Shown in pieces: positions 6,901-63,693 of a stretch of 63,693 nucleotides of DNA. The notes under the pieces are model-generated. The model saw only the letters and a list, made by a program, of their open reading frames with translations, was not told the origin of the DNA and did not search any database. The position numbers were made by a program, and so were the translations under genes. How positions within the stretch are numbered: position 1 is the stretch's first letter; each line of letters opens with the position of its first letter. Origin of the DNA: a virus; the IMG/VR virus record IMGVR_UViG_3300018954_000002, positions 1 to 63,693 of that record; one strand, 5' to 3'.

Positions 6901-7187
6901 CTAGGCCCGCGCTGCGTCTTCGGTTGAACCCGCCAGTCCTTGGCGCGGACACAGGTGACGAAGTGTGACGTCCGCAGCAATGCCCCGCCCTCTTCCGCCA
7001 GGCCGGGCCCCTGTCCGGCGAGTACCTCGGCGTAGACGGTCCCCTGTCGTAACGACAGCAGGACGTTACCCACCCCGTCACTGGTCGGCTCAGCGTCCAC
7101 GGGCATCAACTTCCCGATCTTCGTGCGTGCCCAGATGATGTCCGCCCCGCACTCGGGGGTGCGGCACTTCTCGGTCGGGTAGGTCAT
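6897..7187 (-). CDS. Hypothetical Cys-containing protein (96 aa)
   Basis: CRTPEC...HFVTC arrangement. ATGA-coupled. Confidence 0.6.
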   Translation of the reverse strand: MTYPTEKCRTPECGADIIWARTKIGKLMPVDAEPTSDGVGNVLLSLRQGTVYAEVLAGQGPGLAEEGGALLRTSHFVTCVRAKDWRVQPKTQRGPS

Positions 7188-7435
7188 TGCGGTCGTCCCT
7201 TCCCGTAGCCAGTGCGGCCCGGTTCGAGCCGGTCGATGAACGCGATGATCTCGCGACGTGTGCGCCGGCTGGACTTCAAGAACCCGCAGGCGTTGGCCAG
7301 CTTCTCGCCGGATAGGTGCCTGCTCGCCGTGAACAGCGCATCTGCGCGTAGATCCTTCGGCACGGTCCCGTTGTCGAGCCGGCTTCTATGTGCGTCGATC
7401 GCTTCGCGTCTGGCGGCAGTGAACGGCTCGCTCAC
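7184..7435 (-). CDS. Hypothetical protein (83 aa)
   Basis: GTGA overlap with the ERF gene stop. Confidence 0.55.
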   Translation of the reverse strand: MSEPFTAARREAIDAHRSRLDNGTVPKDLRADALFTASRHLSGEKLANACGFLKSSRRTRREIIAFIDRLEPGRTGYGKGRPQ

Positions 7436-8388
7436 CGCCCACCACCCGGGCCACCCGTCGTCCCGTCAGCCGCGAGCAGCGCGCCGTCTCCGGGCTCCCA
7501 CGGCGGCGTCTCGCTGTTCGGGTCCGCCGTGCCAATGACCGAGTCGCGGACCGTGCGCCGGCCGGGAGCCGCGGTCGGCGCGGTCGGCGCCTGCGCGGCC
7601 TTCTTCTCGATCAGTTTCGCGATCACCGTCTCGGCCTGCTCGAACGTGAGTTCCTTGCTGGTCGACAGCGCGGGGTTACCGACCAGCCTCCCCGTGATCT
7701 CGATCCGGAGGGTGCGGTTCGCGTCCCCGCCGTATCCGAGTTCATTCCAGAGGGCGTGCATGCGTCGGTGCTGGCTGTCGTCGACCATGCGGCGATCGCC
7801 CGTCGCGGATGCCACCGTCCGCGGCGTGGCCCGGTCGCTCGGAAGCGGCGGGCGCCCCGCCCGCTGCGCTGTCGCCTTGGCGGGAGCGGGGGCGGGAGCG
7901 GGGGTGTCCCCCGCAGGTGATGGCGCCGCCTTCGCCGGTCGCGACCGGGTGGCGGGTGGCGTGCGCTGCGCAGTGGCGGGCCCCTCGCTCAGCCGCGACT
8001 CGTCGTCCTCGTCCGCCGCCACGCCGACCACCGCCGCGAGGCAGTACCGCCGGGCGTACGTGATCCGTCCGCCGATCATCTGGATTCCACCCTCGCCGGA
8101 CAGAGGGAACTCGCCTGACATGACCTCGCCGGAGGCGTGCATCAGGTGGTAGCGAAGTGCCATCTTTCCGTCCGAGCCGGCGCCCGGCATGGCGAGGAAC
8201 GACAGACCGTGCTTCGCGAGCAGCGGGAGAATCGCGTCGGACAGGTTGGCGAGGGTTACGTAGCTGTACGAGTAGGACCCGCCGTTCTTCTGTTGCACCT
8301 CGACGGTACGGTCCCGCTCCAGCTTCGGCAGTTCCGCCTGAACCTTGGCGAGCGCGGCGGCGAGCCCCCCCGGTGTCTGCGTGGTCAT
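7432..8388 (-). CDS. erf: ERF-family single-strand annealing recombinase
   Basis: From the ATG at 8388: ...NGGSYSYSYVTLANLSDAILPLLAKHGLSF...GGRITYARRYCL, which are hallmark ERF motifs. Pro/Ala-rich linker. Confidence 0.8.
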   Translation of the reverse strand: MTTQTPGGLAAALAKVQAELPKLERDRTVEVQQKNGGSYSYSYVTLANLSDAILPLLAKHGLSFLAMPGAGSDGKMALRYHLMHASGEVMSGEFPLSGEGGIQMIGGRITYARRYCLAAVVGVAADEDDESRLSEGPATAQRTPPATRSRPAKAAPSPAGDTPAPAPAPAKATAQRAGRPPLPSDRATPRTVASATGDRRMVDDSQHRRMHALWNELGYGGDANRTLRIEITGRLVGNPALSTSKELTFEQAETVIAKLIEKKAAQAPTAPTAAPGRRTVRDSVIGTADPNSETPPWEPGDGALLAADGTTGGPGGGR

Positions 8389-9243
8389 GATCCGGCCTCC
8401 ACGGTGGTGACGGCGTATGTCGAGGCGATGGGCGGGACGATCGGGTCGCCCACGAGATCCCGCGAGCCGGCGTCGAACCGGCCGACCTCGCGGACGTACT
8501 GGAACGCCAAATGCTCGTCCTCCTCGGCTTTCACCGGGATGAGCGAGTACCCGTCGGGGCGAACCCACACGGCGCCAGTCCACGCGATCTCCGGCATCGG
8601 GATCGCAGTGCCCGGATCTTTCGGGTCGGTCTGCAGGAACTCCGCGAAGCGATACCCGGCGAGCTGCAACGCCGTCTCGCCGAAGATCCCCGACCGGTTC
8701 GTCTTGGCGTCGATCAGGCACCAGTTCACGAAGCCGTCTTCATCGCGGGGCAGGTGGTCGTACTCCGGCATGTCCGGCAACAGGATGTCGCCGATGATGT
8801 CGATCTGCCCGCAGTAACGCAGGGTCTCGGAGTACACCAGGCACTCCAGGTGCCGCACCCGTAGCTGGAATTCGTCGAGGAACCGGACGTACGAGTTGAC
8901 GTGGCCGACCAGCGGATCCGGGATGGTGACCTTCTCGCCGCGCATCAGCCGCTCGCCGAACGTGTGCACCTGCGTGCCGCGGTTCGCCGCCTCGTCCTTG
9001 ACTGCGTATCGGCCGCGCTGCATCTTGCTCAGCCGCGCGGCGGGCGGAAGTGCGGCGAGCTCGTCCCAGTGGTCGAGCGTGTAATCGGCGGTCGCGTTGC
9101 CGGCCCAGTTGATGAGCGCTTTCTTCGGCATGCCGGCGTCGATCTCGCCGGTGACGCCGGGGACCCGTTCGCCGTTGGCGTCGAGGTCGACGTACCAGTG
9201 GTTCCGGCCGCTGTCCTTGCGGATAATCCTCATCGGGTGCGGG
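8385..9243 (-). CDS. PD-(D/E)XK (RecB/Cas4-like) exonuclease
   Basis: From the ATG at 9243 (GGAGAGGA RBS): GQIDIIGD ... CLIDAKT ... QLAGY motifs. Directly upstream of erf. Confidence 0.75.
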
Positions 9244-13802: not shown

Positions 13803-14302
13803 CAGTGCACCTGCCTCATCTGGTCGGACTCGGAGTCGAGGAGCTGGCCGACCGCCCACGAGCGGGCGAGGCGGTCGTAGATCCTGACCATCTCGGCGTA
13901 CGTCTTCATCGTCGAGCGCATGAGGGTCGTGTGGACGTTGGTCCACCCGAACTGCTGCCGGTTGAGCCACATGTCGCGCGCTGCACCGCGGTAGCCCTCG
14001 ACGGCCTTCGCGCGCTTCTCGGCGTACGGGTTGCCGAACTCGATCAGGGTCGCGATGCGCTGCTCGCGGGTCGGCTCGGGCGTGGTGGCTTCGAGGTAGG
14101 CCGACCATGCGTCGTGGTCGTAGGGGTCCTCGGGTGCGGAGACGTCGGTCAGGTTGGGCTCGCGGTGGGGGCCACGGTCGGCGGGGGCGTAGGGGTACGG
14201 GTCCTCTCCGCGAGCGAACTTGTCGAGCTCGGTCCGTAGTTCTGCGACGTAGGCGTCGTACTCCGGCGTTCCGACCGGGTAGCGCGGCTCCGGCTGCGTC
14301 AT
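13802..14302 (-). CDS. Hypothetical protein (166 aa)
   Basis: Clean protein-like ORF. Confidence 0.65.
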   Translation of the reverse strand: MTQPEPRYPVGTPEYDAYVAELRTELDKFARGEDPYPYAPADRGPHREPNLTDVSAPEDPYDHDAWSAYLEATTPEPTREQRIATLIEFGNPYAEKRAKAVEGYRGAARDMWLNRQQFGWTNVHTTLMRSTMKTYAEMVRIYDRLARSWAVGQLLDSESDQMRQVH

Positions 14303-14445
14303 CGCGCACCACCGGCGGTGAGCAGGAACAGCGGGCGCAGGTCGCGGGCGATGATCTGCACCGCCGCGACCTCGCTGCGGCGCATGCTGCGAACGCGGAC
14401 GGTGGAGTGCTGCCGGTCGGAGATCCTGCGGTTGCGGCGGGCCAT
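14299..14445 (-). CDS. Small basic protein (48 aa)
   Basis: MARRNRRISDRQHSTVRVRSMRRSEVAAVQIIARDL... ATGA-coupled downstream. Weak RBS. Confidence 0.4.
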   Translation of the reverse strand: MARRNRRISDRQHSTVRVRSMRRSEVAAVQIIARDLRPLFLLTAGGAR

Positions 14446-14450
14446 CGTGG

Positions 14451-14678
14451 TCACCGCCCGGCCAGTGCAGCGGCGTGGTCGTCGTCGAGTGTGGCGAAGC
14501 GCAGGGTCCCGTAGCTGACCTCGCCGGTCAGCTTGACGCCCTTCTCCACGCGCCCGTTCGGCCACAGGACGTCGCACACCGTCTTGCGCTGGCGGACGAT
14601 CTGACCGCGGACGACGAGGTCGTCCTGCGGGTCGGTCCACTCGGCTGCGACGTAGACGGGGAACTCTTTGCGGGCCAT
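14451..14678 (-). CDS. Hypothetical protein (75 aa)
   Basis: AAGGAG RBS before the ATG at 14678. First gene downstream of P3. Confidence 0.6.
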   Translation of the reverse strand: MARKEFPVYVAAEWTDPQDDLVVRGQIVRQRKTVCDVLWPNGRVEKGVKLTGEVSYGTLRFATLDDDHAAALAGR

Positions 14679-14718
14679 CTGGACCACTCCTTGGTGTCGT
14701 TCGTTCCTGACACCACCT

Positions 14719-14748
14719 ACGCTATATCCACACGTGGATAAGTGTCAA
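14719..14748 (-). promoter_or_regulatory. Promoter-operator cassette P3
   Basis: -35 TTGACA (14748-14743), 18 nt, -10 TAGCGT (14724-14719). Palindrome TATCCA-CACG-TGGATA at 14725-14740. Confidence 0.7.
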
Positions 14749-15008
14749 GAGTTCTGCGCCACGGAGTTTCCCGGCAGTCCCGCGATCCTGTATGCGTACG
14801 CCTGCACGCTGTCGACGTACACCCGCCGGTGCCCACGGAGCACTCGCCCGCGAACGTCCTCCGTCACCCGGTGCGCCCGGGTCCACGCGAACTCCAGCTC
14901 TCCCAGCGAACAGAGCGCGCGAATTTCGCGAAGCGAAACACCGAGCGTTTTCGCAGCCTGTCCCGTGGTCATCGTCTCGCGGTCGCCCCGCGTGGCTTCG
15001 CTTGTCAT
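14745..15008 (-). CDS. MerR/excisionase-type HTH DNA-binding protein
   Basis: MTTGQAAKTLGVSLREIRALCSLGEL. The start is ambiguous (ATG at 15008 or 14972). The stop lies inside the P3 -35 box. Confidence 0.6.
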   Translation of the reverse strand: MTSEATRGDRETMTTGQAAKTLGVSLREIRALCSLGELEFAWTRAHRVTEDVRGRVLRGHRRVYVDSVQAYAYRIAGLPGNSVAQNS

Positions 15009-15556
15009 GTGGTCAAAGTAGCAAGACGAACGAAAGTCTGCCATGCTGCGAACCATGACCCCGCTGACTTCGCTTCGTTCGCTTCGTTCGCTCCCGTTCG
15101 CTCTGGCTTCGCTGTTCGTCGTCGTGAGCGTCATCGCTGCGTTCGCATACGCGATCAACGCATGGCAGGTCTACGGCTTCGCTGCGAACGTGTGGCAGCT
15201 GCCGGCGGTCCTGTGCGTCTTCGCCGCGCTCGTCGCCGACGCTCTTTCGCTCGCCGGACTCTTCACCACGTACATCCTTCGCAGAGCGAAGCTGCACGTC
15301 CGCGCGTACGCATGGTTCGTCTTCCTCAGCATGACTTCGCTGTCCATCCTCGCGGCCGAGTCGTTCGCGAAGTGGCGTCAGCTCCCGCAAAGTTCGCGGG
15401 ATCTCTTCGCCAACGAACCCTCGCTCATCGAAGCGGACAGCGTCGCTGGCGGGGTTCTCGACGACGCGAACGTGGCCGCTGCCGTGATCGCCCCTGCGCT
15501 CGCTCTCGCGGTGCACCTGCTCATCATCTGCGTTCGCCACGCGGTTCCGGCTTCGC
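14887..15556. repeat. TTCGC/GCGAA-dense island 1
   Basis: About 29 copies counted by eye in about 670 bp. Background elsewhere is about 2-3 per kb. Includes the 9-bp tandem TTCGCTTCG at 15070-15095. Confidence 0.7.
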
Positions 15557-16047
15557 GGGACGGCGCGACCCCGGCGGGGCACCCTGACTTCATCGCCTGC
15601 CCGCTCTGCGGCGGCGACGCCATCTCGCCCACGGTGCTCGCGGAGCACATGGCCCGGCGGCACCCGGCTCCCTCCGTGGCCCAAGGGCCTCCCCGCGCCG
15701 TGCGTCCCGTCCGGACCGAGCAGGCACCGGAGCCCGACCGGCCTGTTCCGGTCGTGCGCGAGCAGGCCGAAAAGGTCCAGGTCATGCCCCCTGCGCCCCG
15801 GCGCGGAGGACGCCGGGGCGGAATCAGCGCAGTGAACAAGGCGAACGCTGTTGCCCGGGTCATCGCCAAGGAGATGACCGCAGCCGAGGTGGCCGCCCTG
15901 CTGGACTGCTCGACGCGCGCCGTCGAACAGTGGGTTAAGGCGTACCGCGAGCAGCAGGCGGGCCAGCCCCTCGCCGCGATGCGCACGTTGACCGACGGAT
16001 CCGGGCAGGTCAACGGCCACAAGCCGGAAGAGACGGTGAGCCTGTGA
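15043..16047 (+). CDS. DUF2637-like polytopic membrane protein with a C-terminal HTH
   Basis: Four hydrophobic helices in the N-terminal half, a CPLCGG Cys/His (zinc-finger-like) motif, and C-terminal MTAAEVAALLDCSTRAVEQWV. This gene type usually sits next to FtsK-like genes in actinomycete conjugative elements. Confidence 0.6.
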   Translation: MLRTMTPLTSLRSLRSLPFALASLFVVVSVIAAFAYAINAWQVYGFAANVWQLPAVLCVFAALVADALSLAGLFTTYILRRAKLHVRAYAWFVFLSMTSLSILAAESFAKWRQLPQSSRDLFANEPSLIEADSVAGGVLDDANVAAAVIAPALALAVHLLIICVRHAVPASRDGATPAGHPDFIACPLCGGDAISPTVLAEHMARRHPAPSVAQGPPRAVRPVRTEQAPEPDRPVPVVREQAEKVQVMPPAPRRGGRRGGISAVNKANAVARVIAKEMTAAEVAALLDCSTRAVEQWVKAYREQQAGQPLAAMRTLTDGSGQVNGHKPEETVSL

Positions 16048-16087
16048 GCACCCGCGAGGGCCCACGGATGCGCACGGTGAGTGATAT

Positions 16088-16287
16088 TGCAAGTGCAAGT
16101 GCCGCCGCGCCCTTTTCAGACGCGCCGGTACCTAGGGGGGGAGATGCAAAGGATCTTGCAAGCCGTCCGGTATGGACCGATTGCAAGGCGCGGTGCAAGT
16201 CCGGTTTGATCAGGTTGCAAGCCCCGCTGCAAGCCCTGCAAGTCACGCAGCGTAGGGATCCCGGACCTGCAAACGATCTACTGCAAG
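16088..16287 (+). repeat. Array of 11 TGCAAG/TGCAAA hexamers upstream of the traB-like gene
   Basis: Copies start at 16088, 16094, 16145, 16157, 16182, 16194, 16216, 16228, 16237, 16268 and 16282. Three pairs are 12 bp apart. Confidence 0.85.
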
Positions 16288-16303
16288 CGAGGGGGGCAGG
16301 GCC

Positions 16304-18505
16304 ATGGCGGTGAAGGCAGACGAGCGCCGCGAGCGCGAGCAGGGCGGCCACACCCGGCCGACCAGCAAGCGGCACGTCCCGTTCCTCGCGTCCTTCCTGG
16401 TCGCGTTCGTCGTCATCCCGGTCACGTTCGCGATCTCCCACGCCATCTACCTCTGGGACCCCGCGACCGGCCTCATGCTCGCGCACGGATGGTTCATCAC
16501 CGGCTGCACCGTCGCGTTGGTCGCCGTCGGGATCGGCCTGTTCCACGCCAAGCGCACCACGTTCCTGATCAAACACGTCGCGATCACCGTGTTCCTGTTC
16601 GGCGCGGCCGGCGACGTCATCACCCTCGCCGGATTCCGGCATCGCTTCCTCGACGTCGTGTGGTTCTTCGCGACCCTGATCGTGTGGCTGTCGTGGATGC
16701 TCTACCGCGTCGACGCCTTCCGTGCGAAGGCGACCGGCGAATCGAGCGACTCGTGGGGCGACGTCATCGGCCTTGCGAAGTCGCGGCCGAAGAAGGTTCG
16801 CACGACGCCCAGCGAAGTCATCATCGACGTCGAGCACGGCCCCGGCGAAACGATCGGCGACGTCCGCAACGCAGCGAAGGAACTGGAGGACAAGGCCGGT
16901 GCCATCGTCGGGCGAACGACCGTCATCGCGGGCGAACGTGGCGGGTCTTCGCAGATTCGCTTGACGATGGCGGACCCCTTCGACGAGTGGCGAAAGTTCC
17001 CCGGCCTTTCGCACCCCGGCGGTTCGTTCGCTCTGCCGTTTCGCACCGCGTACTACTCAACCGGCGACGACCAGTGGTTCGGTTTCGCTCGCGGCACCCT
17101 CGCTTCGCCGCTGACGAACTTCGTCGCGCCGCAGGCGACCTTCGTCGGCATCGTCGGCACCACCGGCGCAGGCAAGTCCGGCGAACAGAACAACATCGCC
17201 GCCGAGGGGCTTTCGCGGTGCGACGCGATCCTCTGCTGGGTCGACGCGGAGAAGCTGTTCCAGAACGCCGGGTGGTGCCTGGACATGCTCGGCATGGCGG
17301 CCCCGGACCGGCCGAAGGCGGCACGGCTTTCGCGGGCGCTCAAAAAGCTGGCCGAGCACCGGGTGCAGTTGTTCGGTCAGATGTCGCTCGACGCCGCCCT
17401 CGACCCCGACAACCCCGACGCCATCGGTGGCCGGGAGTGGACGCCGGAGGTCGCCCGGGAGACCGGGGAAGCCGCCGTGCTCGTCATCATGGACGAGGCC
17501 GACACGTTCCTGCAGAAAGGCGAATGGGACTGGCTCGGCAAGCGGGGCCGCTCCCTCGGGATCTTCCTGTGCCCGTCCGTGCCCCGGGCGTCGACACAAG
17601 AGGTGCCGGCGGCCTTCCGCGGCAGCATCGCCGCGTGGAAGACGTTCGCGATCGGCGACAAGTACAGCGGCGAGTTCACCCTGTCGCAGTCGACCCGCGA
17701 CGCCGGGGCGGACCCGGAGTCGCTGCGCATGCCGGGCGGCCACTGGTTCGACCTCGCGCCCGGCGTCGACCCCCGGCTGTGGCCGCTGCTCTGCCGATCG
17801 TTCTGGTCGGACGGCCGGATGCTGCGACAGATGGTCCTCGCCGCCCGCCAGCGGTTCACGCCGATGGACTTCACCGACGCGGCGAAGGCCGCGATGGGGC
17901 AGGACTACGAGGTGTGCACCCCCGCCGCGGTGATGGCTGTACGCGCGCCCGAGGTGCGCAACGAAGGCGACGGGGCCGCCGCGCCGGCGGACCCGCAGAC
18001 GACGCAGGAGACTCCCGGACCCGCCGGACCTGCCGACAGCAGAGGAGGAGATGACGTGGACACCGAGCCCGTCGAACGCACAGAAGAGGGCGCCCGCGCC
18101 CCGGAGGGGGATGATGGCGTCGTCGCCACTCTCTCTCACCCGGGCCTGCCGGGCGCCGCCGAGTCCGACCCCCGCGCGCCGATCGAGCGCGGCACCACGG
18201 GAGTCGAGGTGCCGGAGGACAAGCCGCCCGCCCCATCGAGAGAACAGGAAGACGCCGACCTCGACCACGCCCTGGTGAAGCTGTACCAGGACGACGTGTC
18301 CGAGTTCACCCCGGAGGACGTCGCCGATCGGCAGCAGTACGCGATGCAGCCGTGGACGATGTCGCGCCGGCTCGGTGCCCTCGCGGCGTCCGAGACGATC
18401 AAACCGCCCGGCCTCAAGGTCGAGCGACTCCGCGCCGGGCGGTACCTGTTGGTCCGCGTCGGCCCGTCCCCCCGCCCCACCAACGTCCCGCGAAAGGGTG
18501 AGTAG
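16304..18505 (+). CDS. traB: FtsK/SpoIIIE-family DNA translocase, TraB-like
   Basis: N-terminal TM helices, Walker A GTTGAGKS, Walker B VLVIMDEAD, an acidic linker and a C-terminal winged-helix-like tail. 733 aa. Confidence 0.85.
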   Translation: MAVKADERREREQGGHTRPTSKRHVPFLASFLVAFVVIPVTFAISHAIYLWDPATGLMLAHGWFITGCTVALVAVGIGLFHAKRTTFLIKHVAITVFLFGAAGDVITLAGFRHRFLDVVWFFATLIVWLSWMLYRVDAFRAKATGESSDSWGDVIGLAKSRPKKVRTTPSEVIIDVEHGPGETIGDVRNAAKELEDKAGAIVGRTTVIAGERGGSSQIRLTMADPFDEWRKFPGLSHPGGSFALPFRTAYYSTGDDQWFGFARGTLASPLTNFVAPQATFVGIVGTTGAGKSGEQNNIAAEGLSRCDAILCWVDAEKLFQNAGWCLDMLGMAAPDRPKAARLSRALKKLAEHRVQLFGQMSLDAALDPDNPDAIGGREWTPEVARETGEAAVLVIMDEADTFLQKGEWDWLGKRGRSLGIFLCPSVPRASTQEVPAAFRGSIAAWKTFAIGDKYSGEFTLSQSTRDAGADPESLRMPGGHWFDLAPGVDPRLWPLLCRSFWSDGRMLRQMVLAARQRFTPMDFTDAAKAAMGQDYEVCTPAAVMAVRAPEVRNEGDGAAAPADPQTTQETPGPAGPADSRGGDDVDTEPVERTEEGARAPEGDDGVVATLSHPGLPGAAESDPRAPIERGTTGVEVPEDKPPAPSREQEDADLDHALVKLYQDDVSEFTPEDVADRQQYAMQPWTMSRRLGALAASETIKPPGLKVERLRAGRYLLVRVGPSPRPTNVPRKGE
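16724..17333. repeat. TTCGC/GCGAA-dense island 2 (inside traB)
   Basis: About 20 copies by eye. GCGAA dominates from 16724 to 16932 (8 of 9). TTCGC dominates from 16948 to 17329 (9 of 11). Confidence 0.65.
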
Positions 18506-18508
18506 CCG

Positions 18509-18889
18509 ATGCCGCAGATGCCCCCGGCCAATCAGTCGACCAAGTACAACGAAGAGATCGAGGCGCTCGGCGTCGCCGTCCGCGCTGCGGCGATCGCCGG
18601 CCACGACTTCCTGTCCCCACTCGCCGCGTCGCTGTCTCGGCGCCTGGCGAAGGGTCTGCGTTCCGAGGGGCTGGACGGCGGCAACTTCGCCTCTCGGTTC
18701 CTGCGCGGCGGGGACGCCGCCCGGACCGCGATGTGGATCACCGAGCCGATGCGGGCCGCCGCGGCGGACCTCTACAACTGCTCCGTGAACATGACCACCT
18801 TCGTCCGGCGGTTCCGGGTCGGCTACGTCGACGCGATCATCCAGGCACGGAACACGGCGAAGGACGACGACATCGTCGTCGTCCGCTAA
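18509..18889 (+). CDS. Hypothetical protein (126 aa)
   Basis: Starts 4 nt after the traB stop. Protein-like composition. Confidence 0.6.
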   Translation: MPQMPPANQSTKYNEEIEALGVAVRAAAIAGHDFLSPLAASLSRRLAKGLRSEGLDGGNFASRFLRGGDAARTAMWITEPMRAAAADLYNCSVNMTTFVRRFRVGYVDAIIQARNTAKDDDIVVVR

Positions 18890-18915: not shown

Positions 18916-19311
18916 GTGTTCAACAGTCAGGCGCGGACCGAGCGCAGGAAGCGGGACCGCGAGCAACAGCGGTGGGCGGCGAACAAGCGCGTCGGCCACG
19001 ACCTCGCGTACTGGATCCTGTACGGGGGGCAGATGCTGGCCGCCGTTGGCCTCGCCCTGCTGGCCTTCGCAGCGGTATGGGTGTGGGTCTCCGTCGACCG
19101 CATCCTCATCGCGGAGACGCTCGGCGCCGTGGGGATCCTGATCCTCGCCGTGTATGCCGCGTGGTGGGCCCGGCGAGCGACCCCGCAGTCCCGCGTACTC
19201 GCTCGCGCCGCAGGCATGGCCAACAACGCGCTGGTCTGGCATCTCGTCGGAGCCGCCGGCCTCCTGCTCGTCGTGGCCGGCGTGCTGCTCTGGCAGCAGG
19301 TCGCGGCGTGA
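18916..19311 (+). CDS. Spd-like polytopic membrane protein (131 aa)
   Basis: GGAGGA RBS, 6 nt, GTG at 18916. Three or four hydrophobic helices. Confidence 0.6.
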   Translation: MFNSQARTERRKRDREQQRWAANKRVGHDLAYWILYGGQMLAAVGLALLAFAAVWVWVSVDRILIAETLGAVGILILAVYAAWWARRATPQSRVLARAAGMANNALVWHLVGAAGLLLVVAGVLLWQQVAA

Positions 19312-19544
19312 GCGGCGAGCGCCGCCGGGTGGAGGTCGTGGTCGTCCGCGGCCTTGCCCGGCTGCTCGCCGCCGGGACGGCACTGACCGCCCTCGGCGCG
19401 CTGGCCTTGGTCGGCTGCATGTGGTCGTGGGCCCGGGACGCGGGTGCCGACCCGTCCGTGCTGTGGATGCTCGGCGGGATCGCCGCCGTCCTGTTCGTCG
19501 GAGGGATGTTCTCCGTGGTGGCGTTCGAGTGGGCGCGGGCATGA
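19308..19544 (+). CDS. Small membrane protein, 2 TM helices (78 aa)
   Basis: GTGA overlap at 19308. Confidence 0.55.
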   Translation: MSGERRRVEVVVVRGLARLLAAGTALTALGALALVGCMWSWARDAGADPSVLWMLGGIAAVLFVGGMFSVVAFEWARA

Positions 19545-19990
19545 TCGCCGGGTCGCTCGTCCTGGCCGCGATCGCCCTGCTCGTGCTCGCGCTCCGGCTC
19601 GCCCGCCGCCGCGAACCGTCGCCGGGTCGGCAGGTGACGATCCAGCGCCGCGCCACACCGGCACCTCCGAAGCGACAGCCGCCGCGGCGCGACATCCCGC
19701 ACGCGCTCTACGTCTGCCCGCACCAGTTCGGCGGCGTCGTCTACGTCGGCATCTCGCACGAGCCGGAAGCGCGGCACGAGCGACGGATGGCTGAGTTCAG
19801 GCGCGGCAACCCCCGGGTCGCGTGGGTCGCCGACTCCACCGGCCGGATGCAGATCATTCGGTGGTACCCGGATCGGTCCGCCGCGCTTGCGGCCGAGGAC
19901 GCCCTGATCAAACGTCTCGCCCTGGAGGGACACCCGGTCGCCAACGTCCAGGGCAACCCGCTACGAAGGAGGACTCGTCGTGCTGCGTGA
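19541..19990 (+). CDS. Membrane-anchored GIY-YIG-like nuclease domain protein (149 aa)
   Basis: ATGA overlap. N-terminal TM helix MIAGSLVLAAIALLVLAL, then ALYVCPHQFGGVVYVGISHEPEARHERR...AAEDALIKRL...N. Confidence 0.5.
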   Translation: MIAGSLVLAAIALLVLALRLARRREPSPGRQVTIQRRATPAPPKRQPPRRDIPHALYVCPHQFGGVVYVGISHEPEARHERRMAEFRRGNPRVAWVADSTGRMQIIRWYPDRSAALAAEDALIKRLALEGHPVANVQGNPLRRRTRRAA

Positions 19991-42551: not shown

Positions 42552-44123
42552 TCACCCCAGACTCGATCCGATGGAGTACGAGCCGCCAAGCCACTCGACC
42601 TCCTCGCCCGCCGCACGGGCCAGCGTCACCGCGTACGTCGGCGAGGCGTCGCCGCCCTCGCCCGCGCGCTGCCACCGCCACTCGTCGCCGAACGTGTACT
42701 TCGCCAGCCCCGCGATGGAGTCGTTAAGTTCCGGCTGGTCGATGTGCCTGATCCTACGGTCCGGGCGATCAGATTCGGTCGTCCCGACCTCGCCCGTCTC
42801 CAAGAAGAACTGCCGACACGCCTTCGACACGTCGGGGCCCTGCATCACCACGAGTTCGGTGTCGACGTTCGCCTCGGCCAGCGCCCGGCGTAGCGGGGTG
42901 ATGATCGGGGCCGCCGGGCCGTGCGCCGCGATGCCGATCGAGCACGGGCCCATGCGCTCCGCGACGTCCACCAGGGCGGGCACCGTCCACGACAGGCCCG
43001 GCTCGCGGGCGACCAACTCGACGTAGGTGTCGCCGTTGACGTCGAGCGCCGCCATGCCGATCGAGGCCACCGACTGATCCGGCGCCGCGTCCACGCCGAA
43101 CGCGATCGGGTCCAGGTAGCGGCCCGACACGTTGGGCACCCGCAGGCCGCGCCACGTCGCCTCGGTGATCACGCCCCACTTCGCCACGCGCGCGTCCGGC
43201 TCCCACCCGAGGTACTCGGCGCAGAAGTCGATCAGGTCCATCGCCTCGAAGTCGGAGCGGATCGCCGCCTCGTCGACCGTGTGGCCGAGCGCTGGCATGC
43301 ACGACCACCACGTGTCCGGGTCCGCCGGGTCCATGTCCGGGTCCGCCGACCACTCGAAGTACGCCACCCGCGAGCGCACCCCGGCCTGCACCCGGTGCCG
43401 GCCGTTCTGCCGCTTGGTGTGCAGGTACGGCCACGTCCCGGGCATCTTGCGGGACAGCCCCGGGATCATCGACGCAATCCAGAGCTGGCGCCACTTGCGG
43501 GTCAGCATGGCAGGGCGCAGACCCAGTTCGGTCCGCATGTCCTCCTTCGCCCACGCCTCGTCGATCACGGCCAGGTCGATCGTGTCACCGGTACCGCCGG
43601 TCTTCGCCGTGGTGCTGCCCGGCCCCCACGTCGACCGGTTCGGCCATTTGATCTGCTCGAAGTTGGTCCGCAGCCGCACGTCGATCTGCGGGGCGAACGC
43701 CGACTCCTTGAGCCGCTCGACGTGGATGTCGCGCCACTTCTGTTTCGCGTTGTCGGCGGTCTGCGCGGTGTAGAGGACCCGCTGCGGGCCGGGGTCGACG
43801 ACCGGGCGGCCGAGTTCCTCGCGTACCCACTGCGCCAGCTTCGCGTTGATCGCCGTGCACCGGTGGGTCATCAGGGGGAACATAAACTCCGTCTTGCCCT
43901 GCTGCCGGTTGATGATGAGCACGGCCTCGTCGTACGCGAAGTACCCCGTGTCCGGGTCGATCTCCAGCGCGACGTCGGCGATCAGGTGTTGGTGCGGAAG
44001 GAACGGCTTGCCGAGCTTCGCGGCGACCTTCGCCAGCCCGGGGCCGAGCGTCGGCCGATCCGGGGTCCGCGGCGTGGCGAACCGGGGCGGGCAGCGCAGG
44101 TCGGCCGCGGTCAGGGTGGTCAT
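42552..44123 (-). CDS. Terminase large subunit
   Basis: 523 aa from the ATG at 44123. ...LIINRQQGKTEF...DLAVIDEAW... ATPase motifs. Confidence 0.85.
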   Translation of the reverse strand: MTTLTAADLRCPPRFATPRTPDRPTLGPGLAKVAAKLGKPFLPHQHLIADVALEIDPDTGYFAYDEAVLIINRQQGKTEFMFPLMTHRCTAINAKLAQWVREELGRPVVDPGPQRVLYTAQTADNAKQKWRDIHVERLKESAFAPQIDVRLRTNFEQIKWPNRSTWGPGSTTAKTGGTGDTIDLAVIDEAWAKEDMRTELGLRPAMLTRKWRQLWIASMIPGLSRKMPGTWPYLHTKRQNGRHRVQAGVRSRVAYFEWSADPDMDPADPDTWWSCMPALGHTVDEAAIRSDFEAMDLIDFCAEYLGWEPDARVAKWGVITEATWRGLRVPNVSGRYLDPIAFGVDAAPDQSVASIGMAALDVNGDTYVELVAREPGLSWTVPALVDVAERMGPCSIGIAAHGPAAPIITPLRRALAEANVDTELVVMQGPDVSKACRQFFLETGEVGTTESDRPDRRIRHIDQPELNDSIAGLAKYTFGDEWRWQRAGEGGDASPTYAVTLARAAGEEVEWLGGSYSIGSSLG

Positions 44124-60924: not shown

Positions 60925-61097
60925 GGGGTGGACAAATTTTGGTTAAGGGGTGGAGGGGTGGACATTGTCCACCCCTACCCCCGAGGCATGCCGCGCGTAC
61001 GGTCAGAATAAGTTGTTGTTATTAGGACATACCGACCCTGTTTTTGGCGGAATCCGGGGGTTAGGGGTGGACACGTGTCCACCCCTCCACCCCTTAA
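60925..61097. repeat. Symmetric cluster of GGGGTGGA(CA) repeats and palindromes around an AT-rich core (candidate origin or operator)
   Basis: Single copy at 60925-60934. Perfect palindromes at 60955-60975 and 61064-61085. 22-bp inverted arms TTAAGGGGTGGAGGGGTGGACA (60943-60964) and its complement (61076-61097). AT-rich core at 61005-61035. Confidence 0.85.
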
Positions 61098-62497
61098 TCA
61101 AGATCACTCAGCACGTACGTAACGGTCGGCTGACCGCGGTACTCCGAGGGCTTTCCGATCACGTCTCCGGACATCAGCAGGAGATCAACGGCAGCATCGA
61201 AGTACTGCCGGTCCCTCGATGCCAGGGCCGAGCGCAACGGACCGCGTTGCATGCCGTCCGCGCCCACCCGGGCGAGCCTCTTGCGGATCGAGCGCAACAC
61301 CCGCTGCACGTCCGCCTCGCCGACCTTCTCGGTGACGATGATCGCCCGCTCGGCCTCGGCGACCGCCACGCGGGCGTTCGCCTCCCGCTGCACCGCCGAG
61401 AGCGCCTCGACGCACACGGTGCGCGTTGCGTCGGACACCGCCATGACGACGCCGGCAAGGCGCCAATCGTCCTCGCTGGCCGCCGTACGCCCGTCCAGGA
61501 TGGCCAGCGCGCACGCCACCTTGACGCGGGTCAGCACGGCGTGACTGTCGAGGGCGTCGCCGACGTCGCGGTTACGGTCCTGCCGTGCCTGCCGGATGGT
61601 CCGCTCGGCCACCTCCGGGATGTCCATGAAGATCCGTGACTGCCGCTTGAGCTCGACTGTCGGGCACTCGTTCCAGTCCGGCGGTCGCCACAACATCGGC
61701 GGCGGCGTGGCCGGCAGGTCGTCGATGTCCGGGGCGTCGCGGTCGCTGACCGGCAGCCACACGAACCGCTGTGGCGTGCCGCCGTCCGCGTCGCCGAGCA
61801 GCGCGGCCGACCGGCGCGGCTGGATGCCGGCCCACAGGCACATCCGGTACCGGTGCTCCGGCACCATCATCCGTTTCGCCTCGTCCACGTAGAAGAACCC
61901 GAGCTGCTCGCCCATCGCGGCCTGCCGCAGCTGCCCGGTCAGGGTGGACGCCTGCCGGTTCGCCAGCGCGGCGAGGTTGTCGATCTCCGGGATCTCCACG
62001 AGCGCAGCGTGGTTGTACATCTTCGGCGGGTCGCCGCGCTTGCCCGGCCGCATGAACATGTGCGACAGGCCCTCGCCGCTGCCGAGCGGCGCCGTGCGGA
62101 ACGACGTCTCCCGCTCGCCGAGGTCGAGCACCTCCCCGGCGACGCCCGCCGCCGCCCCCTTCCCGCTGCCAGACGGGCCCACGAGCCCGATGAACAGATT
62201 CAGACTCGCCGCCGTGCCGATGACCGGCGGGATCTGCACGAACGGCGGCGTCGCGGCGACCACACGGGTGAGCACCGAGCCGAACACCGCCCACGGCCCG
62301 GACATCCGGGACCGGGCGTAAGTGCGGATGTGCTCCAGAACCGGACGCTCCGTCCAGAAGTCGCCCGGCTTCGCCTCCTGCCGCTCGTCCTTGGTGATGG
62401 CGACCTGATCCCATCCCTCGGGCGGCTCGCGCCAGATGAGGTCTTCCCAGTCGTCTTCGTCGGGATGCCCCGGCACGACCGGGAGGTCCCCCGCCAT
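61094..62497 (-). CDS. DUF3987-like P-loop NTPase (putative replicative helicase or initiator)
   Basis: 467 aa from the ATG at 62497. Walker A GLVGPSGSGKGA, FFYVDEAKRM, GTPQRFVWLPV. Confidence 0.55.
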   Translation of the reverse strand: MAGDLPVVPGHPDEDDWEDLIWREPPEGWDQVAITKDERQEAKPGDFWTERPVLEHIRTYARSRMSGPWAVFGSVLTRVVAATPPFVQIPPVIGTAASLNLFIGLVGPSGSGKGAAAGVAGEVLDLGERETSFRTAPLGSGEGLSHMFMRPGKRGDPPKMYNHAALVEIPEIDNLAALANRQASTLTGQLRQAAMGEQLGFFYVDEAKRMMVPEHRYRMCLWAGIQPRRSAALLGDADGGTPQRFVWLPVSDRDAPDIDDLPATPPPMLWRPPDWNECPTVELKRQSRIFMDIPEVAERTIRQARQDRNRDVGDALDSHAVLTRVKVACALAILDGRTAASEDDWRLAGVVMAVSDATRTVCVEALSAVQREANARVAVAEAERAIIVTEKVGEADVQRVLRSIRKRLARVGADGMQRGPLRSALASRDRQYFDAAVDLLLMSGDVIGKPSEYRGQPTVTYVLSDLD

Positions 62498-62907
62498 CAC
62501 GGAGCCTCGGCGGTGCCCGGCTCGACGACGGCAGGCCATTCGACGTCCGGGTCGGGCATCTCGCCTACTCGGACCACGTTGCCGGCCTCGTCGACGCCAG
62601 TGGCGCCGCGCGCCGGGATCGGCCGCGGCGGGCGCGCGGCGTCGATCGCACGCTGACGTTCTGCTCCGGCCTCGATGGCGGCCAGTCGCTCGCGGTACCG
62701 CTGCTCGGCGGTGCGCTTCACGATCGGCTCGCCGGCCCACCGGACGATGTCCTCGGACATCTCCAGCGCGAGCGACGCGCCGGAGCGGAAGGCGAGGGCG
62801 AGGAGGTACGCCACCTCTGAGCGGTTGAACGTCTCCCGCTCGTTGAGCTGCCGCTGCACTACGCACCCGGAGCACCCGGGGCAGTCCGTGGCCAGGTGGA
62901 TCGTCAT
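62497..62907 (-). CDS. Hypothetical protein with an N-terminal Cys cluster (136 aa)
   Basis: MTIHLATDCPGCSGCVV... ATGA overlap upstream. Confidence 0.55.
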   Translation of the reverse strand: MTIHLATDCPGCSGCVVQRQLNERETFNRSEVAYLLALAFRSGASLALEMSEDIVRWAGEPIVKRTAEQRYRERLAAIEAGAERQRAIDAARPPRPIPARGATGVDEAGNVVRVGEMPDPDVEWPAVVEPGTAEAP

Positions 62908-63538: not shown

Positions 63539-63693
63539 GAGGACGACGCGGGGGTTCCCTCCCGCTCCTCGATCCAGACCTCTTCGTCCGGATACATCTC
63601 CTCGGCCATGTACCGCGTGTCCGGGCACATCTCCGCGCCCCGGTGGTTGACTCCCTCGAAGTGCGTGCTCGCGGCCCACTCCGGATGCCGCTC
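63535..63693 (-). CDS. 3' part of the junction-spanning CDS (same gene as 1..163)
   Basis: The frame is continuous from the ATG at 163 through the 127-bp overlap to the TGA at 63537-63535. Confidence 0.6.
   Translation of the reverse strand, partial: ERHPEWAASTHFEGVNHRGAEMCPDTRYMAEEMYPDEEVWIEEREGTPASSS
63567..63693. repeat. Terminal overlap identical to 1..127
   Basis: Exact repeat, read directly from the sequence. Confidence 0.95.

Follow-up and report, generated by a model that had tools for sequence, protein, structure and literature searches.

The window, a viral DNA of 63,693 nucleotides (IMG/VR record IMGVR_UViG_3300018954_000002, positions 1 to 63,693), carries two islands of the pentamer GCGAA, counted together with its reverse complement TTCGC. 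Island 2 lies inside a gene for a TraB-like DNA translocase, and island 1 covers the 5′ half of an upstream gene, here called X, and part of its divergent neighbour. The islands are non-random, synonymously encoded, saturating arrays in a conserved two-island architecture. Comparison with related genomes suggests that the enrichment is functional and conserved. It is proposed, with slightly less than even confidence, that the islands are orientation-independent binding arrays for one element-encoded, sequence-specific DNA-binding protein, likely the helix-turn-helix (HTH) domain of X, in a role for TraB like that of the clt loci of conjugative plasmids. The islands and the genes that carry them are listed below in window coordinates.

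14850–15556, no strand assigned: island 1, with 11 GCGAA and 19 TTCGC.
16724–17333, no strand assigned: island 2, with 10 GCGAA and 10 TTCGC within traB codons 141–343.
14745–15008, minus strand: HTH_17 gene (excisionase/BldC-like), 87 amino acids; PF12728, E 2.9e-5; excisionase phrog.
15043–16047, plus strand: gene X, 334 amino acids; DUF2637-like N-terminal domain with multiple transmembrane (TM) segments, C-terminal HTH_23.
16304–18505, plus strand: traB-like gene, 733 amino acids; plasmid_TraB profile, FtsK-type motor.

A preliminary description, made from the letters of this DNA alone, had reported about 20 copies in about 610 bp at traB codons of approximately 140–345, with a further island 2 kb to the left. 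Both statements are borne out, and the coordinates given for island 2 are exact. On the top strand, island 2 has GCGAA at 16724, 16737, 16775, 16812, 16845, 16874, 16912, 16932, 16990 and 17181, and TTCGC at 16797, 16948, 16956, 17008, 17027, 17040, 17084, 17104, 17212 and 17329. Its DNA encodes the segment of the protein from just past the TM domain through Walker A. The 20 copies in 610 bp compare with 1.7 expected from the rest of the window (2.8 per kb; Poisson probability 3e-15). Island 1 holds 30 copies where 1.95 are expected (3e-25), and it extends over the 5′ part of the HTH_17 gene, the 34-bp divergent spacer and X codons 2–170, which are the part of X that codes for the TM domain. 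Across the whole window there are 225 copies, against 160 ± 11 in dinucleotide shuffles, and this excess approximates the content of the two islands.

Among all k-mers of 4 to 8 bases, GCGAA is the most enriched, and this 5-mer is the core. A longer consensus was sought and rejected: only a G, then A or C, is preferred before CGAA, and a base other than T after it. Masking GCGAA in the islands of the genomes that use this motif exposed no second hidden motif, just the near-variants ACGAA and CCGAA. Helical phasing and fixed spacing were likewise rejected; the median gap is 20 bp. There are modest excesses of TTCGCGAA (15 cases), of GCGAAnnTTCGC and of same-orientation pairs 13 bp apart. The GC content of the islands is 66–68%, with no AT-rich tract, and that of the window is 70%. 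At the start of gene X, five TTCGC direct repeats (ttcgcttcgttcgcttcgttcgctcccgttcgctctggcttcgc) stand 9–11 bp apart at 15069–15112, a spacing of the BldC/Xis head-to-tail type. A weak third cluster is found at 43546–44081 in the 5′ part of the large-terminase gene, where 536 bp contain 9 copies, most of which read TTCGC on top.

The motif is written into the TraB coding sequence largely through the choice among synonymous codons. When the protein was held fixed and synonymous codons were redrawn from the gene's own usage, nt +200 to +1150 of traB yielded 5.8 ± 1.4 copies, compared with 21 observed (z ~10). The copies in traB occupy all three codon phases. Some copies in island 2 do fall on conserved dipeptides, namely GE at 16845, FA at 17027 and the GE of GKSGE at 17181. 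The suggestion that conserved peptides produce the pentamer pattern is nevertheless ruled out by the resampling, together with the replacement of the motif by others in relatives whose protein sequence is conserved. That the islands have no function and arise from codon usage, repeated peptides or a bias of mutation has a near-negligible probability: the few copies on conserved dipeptides would fit this view, but the resampling, the sharp island edges and the recurrence of the same architecture with different motifs over conserved protein sequence do not.

Saturation becomes apparent when the copies are compared with permitted positions, defined as sites where some synonymous choice yields GCGAA or TTCGC without changing amino acids. 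Within nt 380–1050 of traB, each orientation has 12 permitted positions, of which 10 carry the motif (20/24 in all). Of the four left unused, two are incompatible with each other and a third with a site already in use. Elsewhere in traB, only 5/38 permitted positions are used, and island 2 is therefore saturated with the motif. Use of permitted positions is also near-saturating in the HTH_17 gene and in X codons 2–170, and it stops abruptly past X codon ~170.

The preliminary description had further claimed a clean orientation switch near 16940, and had likened it to the polar sequences that guide FtsK (FtsK-orienting polar sequences, KOPS) and SpoIIIE (SpoIIIE recognition sequences, SRS). A strand-specific map supports its counts: 8/9 copies up to 16932 read GCGAA and 9/11 from 16948 read TTCGC. 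The bias is significant, with Fisher P = 0.0055 for a split at 16940 and permutation P = 0.012 allowing any split point, and the split of island 1 has the same direction (P = 0.023). The part of the claim that falls away is selected polarity. To the left of 16940, 10 permitted positions are forward and 2 reverse, and to the right the ratio is 2:9 (Fisher 0.003). The underlying peptides are Ala-Lys, Gly-Glu and Ser-Glu on the left, and Phe-Ala, x-Ser-x and Leu/Val/Ile-Arg on the right. The same bias in permitted positions is also seen in 17 relatives, users of other motifs included (116:42 left and 103:161 right, summed). The orientation switch of island 2 is a by-product of coding, because the permitted positions are already split in this manner, in relatives with other motifs as well. 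About half of the residues under copies in the window are shared with relatives of other motif classes; some sites may also have been created by amino-acid change, but the orientation bias as a whole is a property of the protein family. The switch of island 1 falls where the coding strand changes, from the HTH_17 gene to gene X. One relative, L003, has 15 copies in 200 bp of probably non-coding DNA upstream of the likely X start, and there the orientations are interleaved 8:7. Outside the islands, strand bias is not marked (69 vs 87 in sense terms).

The islands were also followed in related genomes. Public metagenomes contained 45 TraB homologues, several of them on contigs of 62–63.5 kb. DNA was obtained for 18 of the 45, with TraB identity down to ~35%, and islands were sought in it by an unbiased k-mer search. 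These relatives are named L001–L005, L043, L044, L082–L089 and L092–L094, and the genome of the window is named W. Single-protein queries for further IMG/VR relatives returned none, and metagenome and genome scans gave mostly distant FtsK motors among the matches listed. Most of the 18 relatives have islands at the same two places, the 5′ half of X and TraB codons ~140–345, and the genomes fall into the following motif classes.

Class A, GCGAA: W, L003, L004, L005, L043, L044, L084, L085 and L094.
Class B, palindrome TGCGCA, with some GCGAA besides: L086, L087, L088 and L093.
Class C, (G/A)CGCAAC or GCGCAA, with some GCGAA besides: L002, L092, L083, L001 and L082.
L089: no traB island, and a modest GCGCA excess upstream only.

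Within each genome, the motif is always common to both islands, and each relative's own motif exceeds the synonymous expectation (z 6–12). The class can switch between close relatives, as between W and L002 (78% identity in the TraB core) or between L003 and L088/L093 (79–80%). TGCGCA is palindromic, and therefore cannot encode direction. The comparison with homologous traB genes that use other motifs, which the preliminary description had put forward as a check, thus ties the islands to the pump module: the two places are constant and the motif is lineage-specific. A lineage-specific motif at conserved places would be the signature of a sequence-specific protein that co-evolves with its sites.

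The island-2 gene encodes a distant TraB, in which a membrane anchor, an FtsK-type P-loop motor and a predicted C-terminal winged helix are all present. It matches NF041214 (plasmid_TraB) over its full length (E 1.8e-45, 155.6 bits), far under the equivalog cut-off of 800 bits, and also matches phrog_24831; it is ~25% identical to Streptomyces TraB. Hydropathy places four hydrophobic segments at residues 23–136, followed by a conserved domain at 140–280, Walker A at 285–293 and Walker B at 397–400. The Walker motifs have invariant G/K/S and DE.D columns, and the motor matches the FtsK structure PDB 2iuu (E 3e-4). The C-terminal part consists of an acidic linker and a winged helix at ~650–722, which an AlphaFold2 model predicts as H-H-H-beta-beta with a confidence score (pLDDT) of 84. 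A Foldseek search with this C-terminal model gave generic winged-helix proteins as its best matches, all weak, and no specific link to FtsK gamma.

Gene X encodes a 4-TM, DUF2637-like protein in which a Pro-rich linker joins the TM domain to a C-terminal HTH; the C-terminal domain spans residues ~255–334. The HTH_23 match in X has E 2e-6, and DUF2637 is matched with E 6e-9 in the L004 orthologue. Both X and TraB are membrane proteins with tethered, predicted DNA-binding domains. A zinc-finger-like CxxC...H....H insert lies between the TM domain and the HTH in the X proteins of W and L044 (window 15598–15675, X residues 186–211); in L004 and L093 a GIY-YIG-like insert takes its place, and a weak GIY-YIG match is also seen in the W operon at 19154–19990. 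The HTH_17 gene is the first gene of the leftward early operon, divergent from X and 34 bp from it, and has orthologues in 7 relatives. An imperfect palindrome, tatccacacgtggata, lies at 14726–14741 in the 57-bp gap between it and the next leftward gene. In W and all relatives, the island locus is the point at which both early operons diverge.

Which of these proteins would read the motif can be approached by asking what varies with it. The TraB winged helix is an improbable specificity determinant, as it shows no covariation with the motif: genomes of different motif classes have nearly the same recognition helix, T.SRRL, which is almost identical in L003 and L088, and divergence of the domain against the motif profile gives a Mantel r of 0.01. 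For the X HTH the corresponding value is r = 0.18 (P = 0.016), and this was the only one of six protein regions to correlate. Two recombinant genomes point the same way, and more clearly. W has a clade-I TraB, yet its X is clade-IV-like in the C-terminal half; its X HTH is 54% identical to that of L044, with the zinc-finger insert and a QVNG tail in common, and the motif in W is that of clade IV. In L092, X is similar to that of L002 (TM 72%, HTH 73%), and the L002 motif is found inside L092's unrelated traB too. The motif class therefore appears to track gene X, if weakly, and not the TraB winged helix. Proteins of the HTH_17 type were rejected as readers in both of their forms: L003 has full GCGAA islands but no gene of the W type, and the L086 type is 82% identical in L003 despite the different motif. 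On these comparisons, the C-terminal HTH of X is the most likely putative reader, at roughly even odds.

The proposed mechanism begins with this HTH, which on a long, flexible, Pro-rich tether would dock on motifs of ~5 bp. The irregular spacing and the occurrence of both orientations favour independent, flexibly tethered domains over a filament of fixed geometry or a directional signal. Many tethered HTH domains would together bind the arrays with high avidity, and would pin the 2.5-kb X–traB region of the phage or plasmid DNA to the membrane, where the TraB pump sits. The pinned region would then act as a clt-like capture or loading locus for TraB-type transfer of double-stranded DNA. We infer the identity of the reader, its tethering to the membrane and the link to DNA transfer. 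A broader version of the proposal is unlikely: ~63-kb tailed phages of uncultured Actinomycetota would carry a working conjugation-type module, comprising the TraB pump and the membrane-tethered reader X, with its cis sites in the coding DNA of that module; the genome could pass through the pump in double-stranded form, directly from one hyphal compartment or cell to another and with no need of virions, and reader and sites would co-diversify in the manner of incompatibility groups.

Several observations weigh against X-bound, clt-like arrays. The covariation of X with the motif is weak, given that six regions were tested on phylogenetically structured genomes with n = 18. The X HTHs of the four TGCGCA genomes are very different from one another (20–35% identity, with 76% for the L086/L087 pair), and L093, which belongs to that class, has a class-A-like X HTH. 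A search for a gene present in all TGCGCA genomes but not in L003 found none, which counts against X as the reader. Genomes of classes B and C retain a significant GCGAA excess besides their own motif, which may point to a reader of degenerate specificity or to a pair of readers. That a tailed-phage-like element would use TraB for DNA transfer is itself assumed. The known clt loci also differ from the islands. They are element-specific short repeats that adjoin or overlap traB in pSVH1, pJV1, pIJ101 and pWTY27; the clt of pIJ101 contains the 5-bp repeat G(C/A)AAC, and that of pWTY27 extends 16 bp into traA (PMC3583192, PMC4447253). A clt comprises 3–9 copies over 50–175 bp, mostly direct repeats of 7–9 bp, at one locus that is non-coding or at the 3′ end of traB. 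By contrast, the islands comprise 20–40 copies over 600–700 bp, at two loci in the coding DNA of the traB 5′ half and of the upstream gene, in both orientations. Furthermore, clt is read by TraB itself, whereas here no covariation links the TraB winged helix to the motif, and the reader is probably not TraB.

A second array in the same locus bears on this comparison:

16088–16287, top strand: TGCAAG array in one orientation, with 9 exact copies and 2 TGCAAA.

This array sits midway between the islands, in the 257-bp non-coding spacer between X and traB, and 10/17 window copies of TGCAAG/CTTGCA fall within its region, with 7 elsewhere. One CTTGCAAG palindrome is also found there. In relatives of clades I–III, the corresponding spacer contains direct repeats of TG(C/A)AA, and a GATCTTGCAAG or GATCTTGAAAC box often accompanies them; relatives that have no X–traB spacer have no TG(C/A)AA repeats, yet they keep both islands. 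By its size, orientation and location, the TGCAAG array comes closer than the islands to a classical clt or operator, and it may be the actual loading or regulatory site of TraB.

The window as a whole is a tailed-phage-like genome, attributed to a phage of uncultured actinobacteria. Its final nucleotides (at least 30) repeat nt 98–127, so that regions 1–127 and 63567–63693 overlap; therefore, the contig is a circular assembly with an overlap of ~127 nt and a genome of ~63.6 kb. Structural and lysis genes encode a large terminase (phrog_9), a portal, a prohead protease/ClpP and a GH25 lysin, and other genes encode an ERF recombinase, a beta clamp and an N6/N4 methyltransferase. Compared with the terminases of Gordonia, Arthrobacter, Mycobacterium and Microbacterium phages, that of the window reaches no more than 30% identity. 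No DNA similarity of the window to any phage or plasmid record was found, and tblastn of TraB and X against 50,697 phage records gave no match. A tRNA search of the window found none, promoter and terminator scans of 14000–18800 found nothing, and no integrase, ParA/ParB or Rep-type initiator was seen among the window proteins scanned. A DUF3987/AAA-lid protein encoded at 61094–62539 may be a replicative helicase.

Among the other explanations for the islands, silencing is possible but rather unlikely. Here the reader, whether X, HTH_17 or another element protein, would coat the early-promoter region at the divergence point as well as the 5′ portion of traB, repressing a potentially toxic pump and the early genes in a kil/kor-like or roadblock fashion. 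Island 1 is well placed for this, as it covers the 34 bp from which the two operons diverge, along with ~500 bp at the start of each operon's first gene, and the five TTCGC copies at 15069–15108 have a suitable 9–11 bp spacing. Unregulated traB is not tolerated in Streptomyces plasmids, where TraR represses it (PMC4447253), and HTH_17/BldC-like proteins oligomerise on short-repeat arrays (PMC5859096). However, island 2 lies 420–1030 bp inside traB, remote from any promoter, and head-to-tail filaments are not fitted by the irregular spacing and mixed orientation. The two observations on L003 noted above, full GCGAA islands without a W-type HTH_17 and an L086-type HTH_17 with 82% identity despite a different motif, also argue against HTH_17 in this role. 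The idea put forward in the preliminary description, of KOPS/SRS-like polar motifs that are read by a gamma-like winged helix of TraB and diverge from a centre to direct translocation, is now very improbable. The significant splits in both islands, the predicted C-terminal winged helix and a similar '> then <' trend in island 2 of several class A relatives would suit it. The orientation is nevertheless set by coding, since permitted positions split alike, even in relatives with other motifs, and the island 1 split falls at the coding-strand change. Nor does a polar guide accord with a palindrome in one clade, with interleaved copies in the non-coding DNA of L003, with a TraB recognition helix that is the same across classes, or with the lack of a marked bias outside the islands.

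A replication origin or partition centromere would place iteron-like or omega/ParR-like arrays at the locus to recruit an initiator or segregation protein, with one array inside the binder's gene as in lambda O–ori and SPP1 oriL. This is improbable. Two clusters of one short motif, one of them within the gene of a predicted DNA-binding protein, lineage-specific motifs like those of iterons and centromeres, and a position in the early region adjoining replication and recombination genes are all in keeping with it. Against this, scans of the window proteins detected no Rep, ParA or ParB, the putative DUF3987-like helicase is ~17 kb away, there is no AT-rich unwinding element in islands of 66–68% GC, and an irregularly spaced 5-bp motif is neither a 17–22-bp iteron nor a contiguous heptad. 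It is decidedly improbable that the islands are targets of DNA modification or restriction, or sites for a host factor (compare GATC clusters bound by SeqA, or a nucleoid protein), with the motif differences arising from different methyltransferases or hosts. Both TGCGCA and TCGCGA, which is the core of TTCGCGAA, have the form of a typical type II palindrome, TTCGCGAA arrangements are over-represented, and these phages encode various methyltransferases. But GCGAA and CGCAAC are non-palindromic, methyltransferase family and position vary among relatives with no conserved module accompanying the islands, and the motif class follows the linked gene X in the two recombinant genomes.

If binding arrays for X are indeed what the islands are, synonymous choice alone can saturate long, essential coding stretches with a cis-acting signal, and a protein-binding array and two membrane-protein genes would use the same bases. 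The motifs GCGAA, TGCGCA and CGCAAC would form a natural specificity-switch series among close relatives, useful for mapping how a small HTH changes its target. The role of FtsK/TraB-like pumps in actinobacterial phages, which have so far been listed just as 'FtsK-like, function unknown' (bioRxiv 10.1101/2024.02.16.580700; PMC11536984), would become testable. The analysis also carries a warning of method: the orientation of short motifs in genes should be compared with protein-permitted positions before polarity is inferred.

Among known systems, the clt loci share with the islands the clustering of element-specific short repeats at the gene of a TraB/FtsK-like double-stranded DNA pump, and a motif that varies by element; the carrier here is a tailed-phage-like genome, unlike the Streptomyces conjugative plasmids with clt. 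In the plasmid with the closest TraB (27% identity; L090, Amycolatopsis plasmid NZ_CP108429), six CTGACA copies lie within 600 bp (7020–7620), starting 34 bp past the stop, and occupy the classical clt position. A Streptomyces canus plasmid (L091) has 22 CGCGACA copies at 7930–8530. KOPS and SRS are similar in that short motifs are tied to an FtsK-family pump with a C-terminal winged helix. Unlike the islands, they are 8-bp, non-palindromic and chromosome-wide, with replichore-wide polarity, whereas the island motifs are 5–7 bp, confined to two islands, oriented by coding constraints and palindromic in one clade.

SpdA2 of pIJ101 binds the sps site within its own gene (PMC4170104). The likeness is to a DNA-binding protein of an actinomycete conjugative element with a site inside its own coding region; however, where the island has 30 copies, sps is a single palindrome that affects plasmid stability, and SpdA2 does not belong to the DUF2637 membrane proteins. 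Lambda O and SPP1 gene 38 (oriL/oriR) likewise have the initiator's sites inside its own coding sequence, with a second cluster elsewhere. As in these initiator genes with iterons, reader and sites would be genetically linked in the islands. Origin iterons are ~19 bp, few and regularly spaced, and adjoin an AT-rich region; the islands show none of this size, low number, regular spacing or AT-rich neighbour. The heptad arrays of omega (pSM19035) and the ParR/parC arrays consist of many short, element-specific copies in mixed orientation that are cooperatively bound. Those arrays differ in being built from contiguous 7-bp units in non-coding promoter regions and in having a ParA-type partner, of which none was found among the W proteins scanned. 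Set beside these systems, the islands are a variant of clt/iteron-type cis elements, and not a member of the clt group itself.

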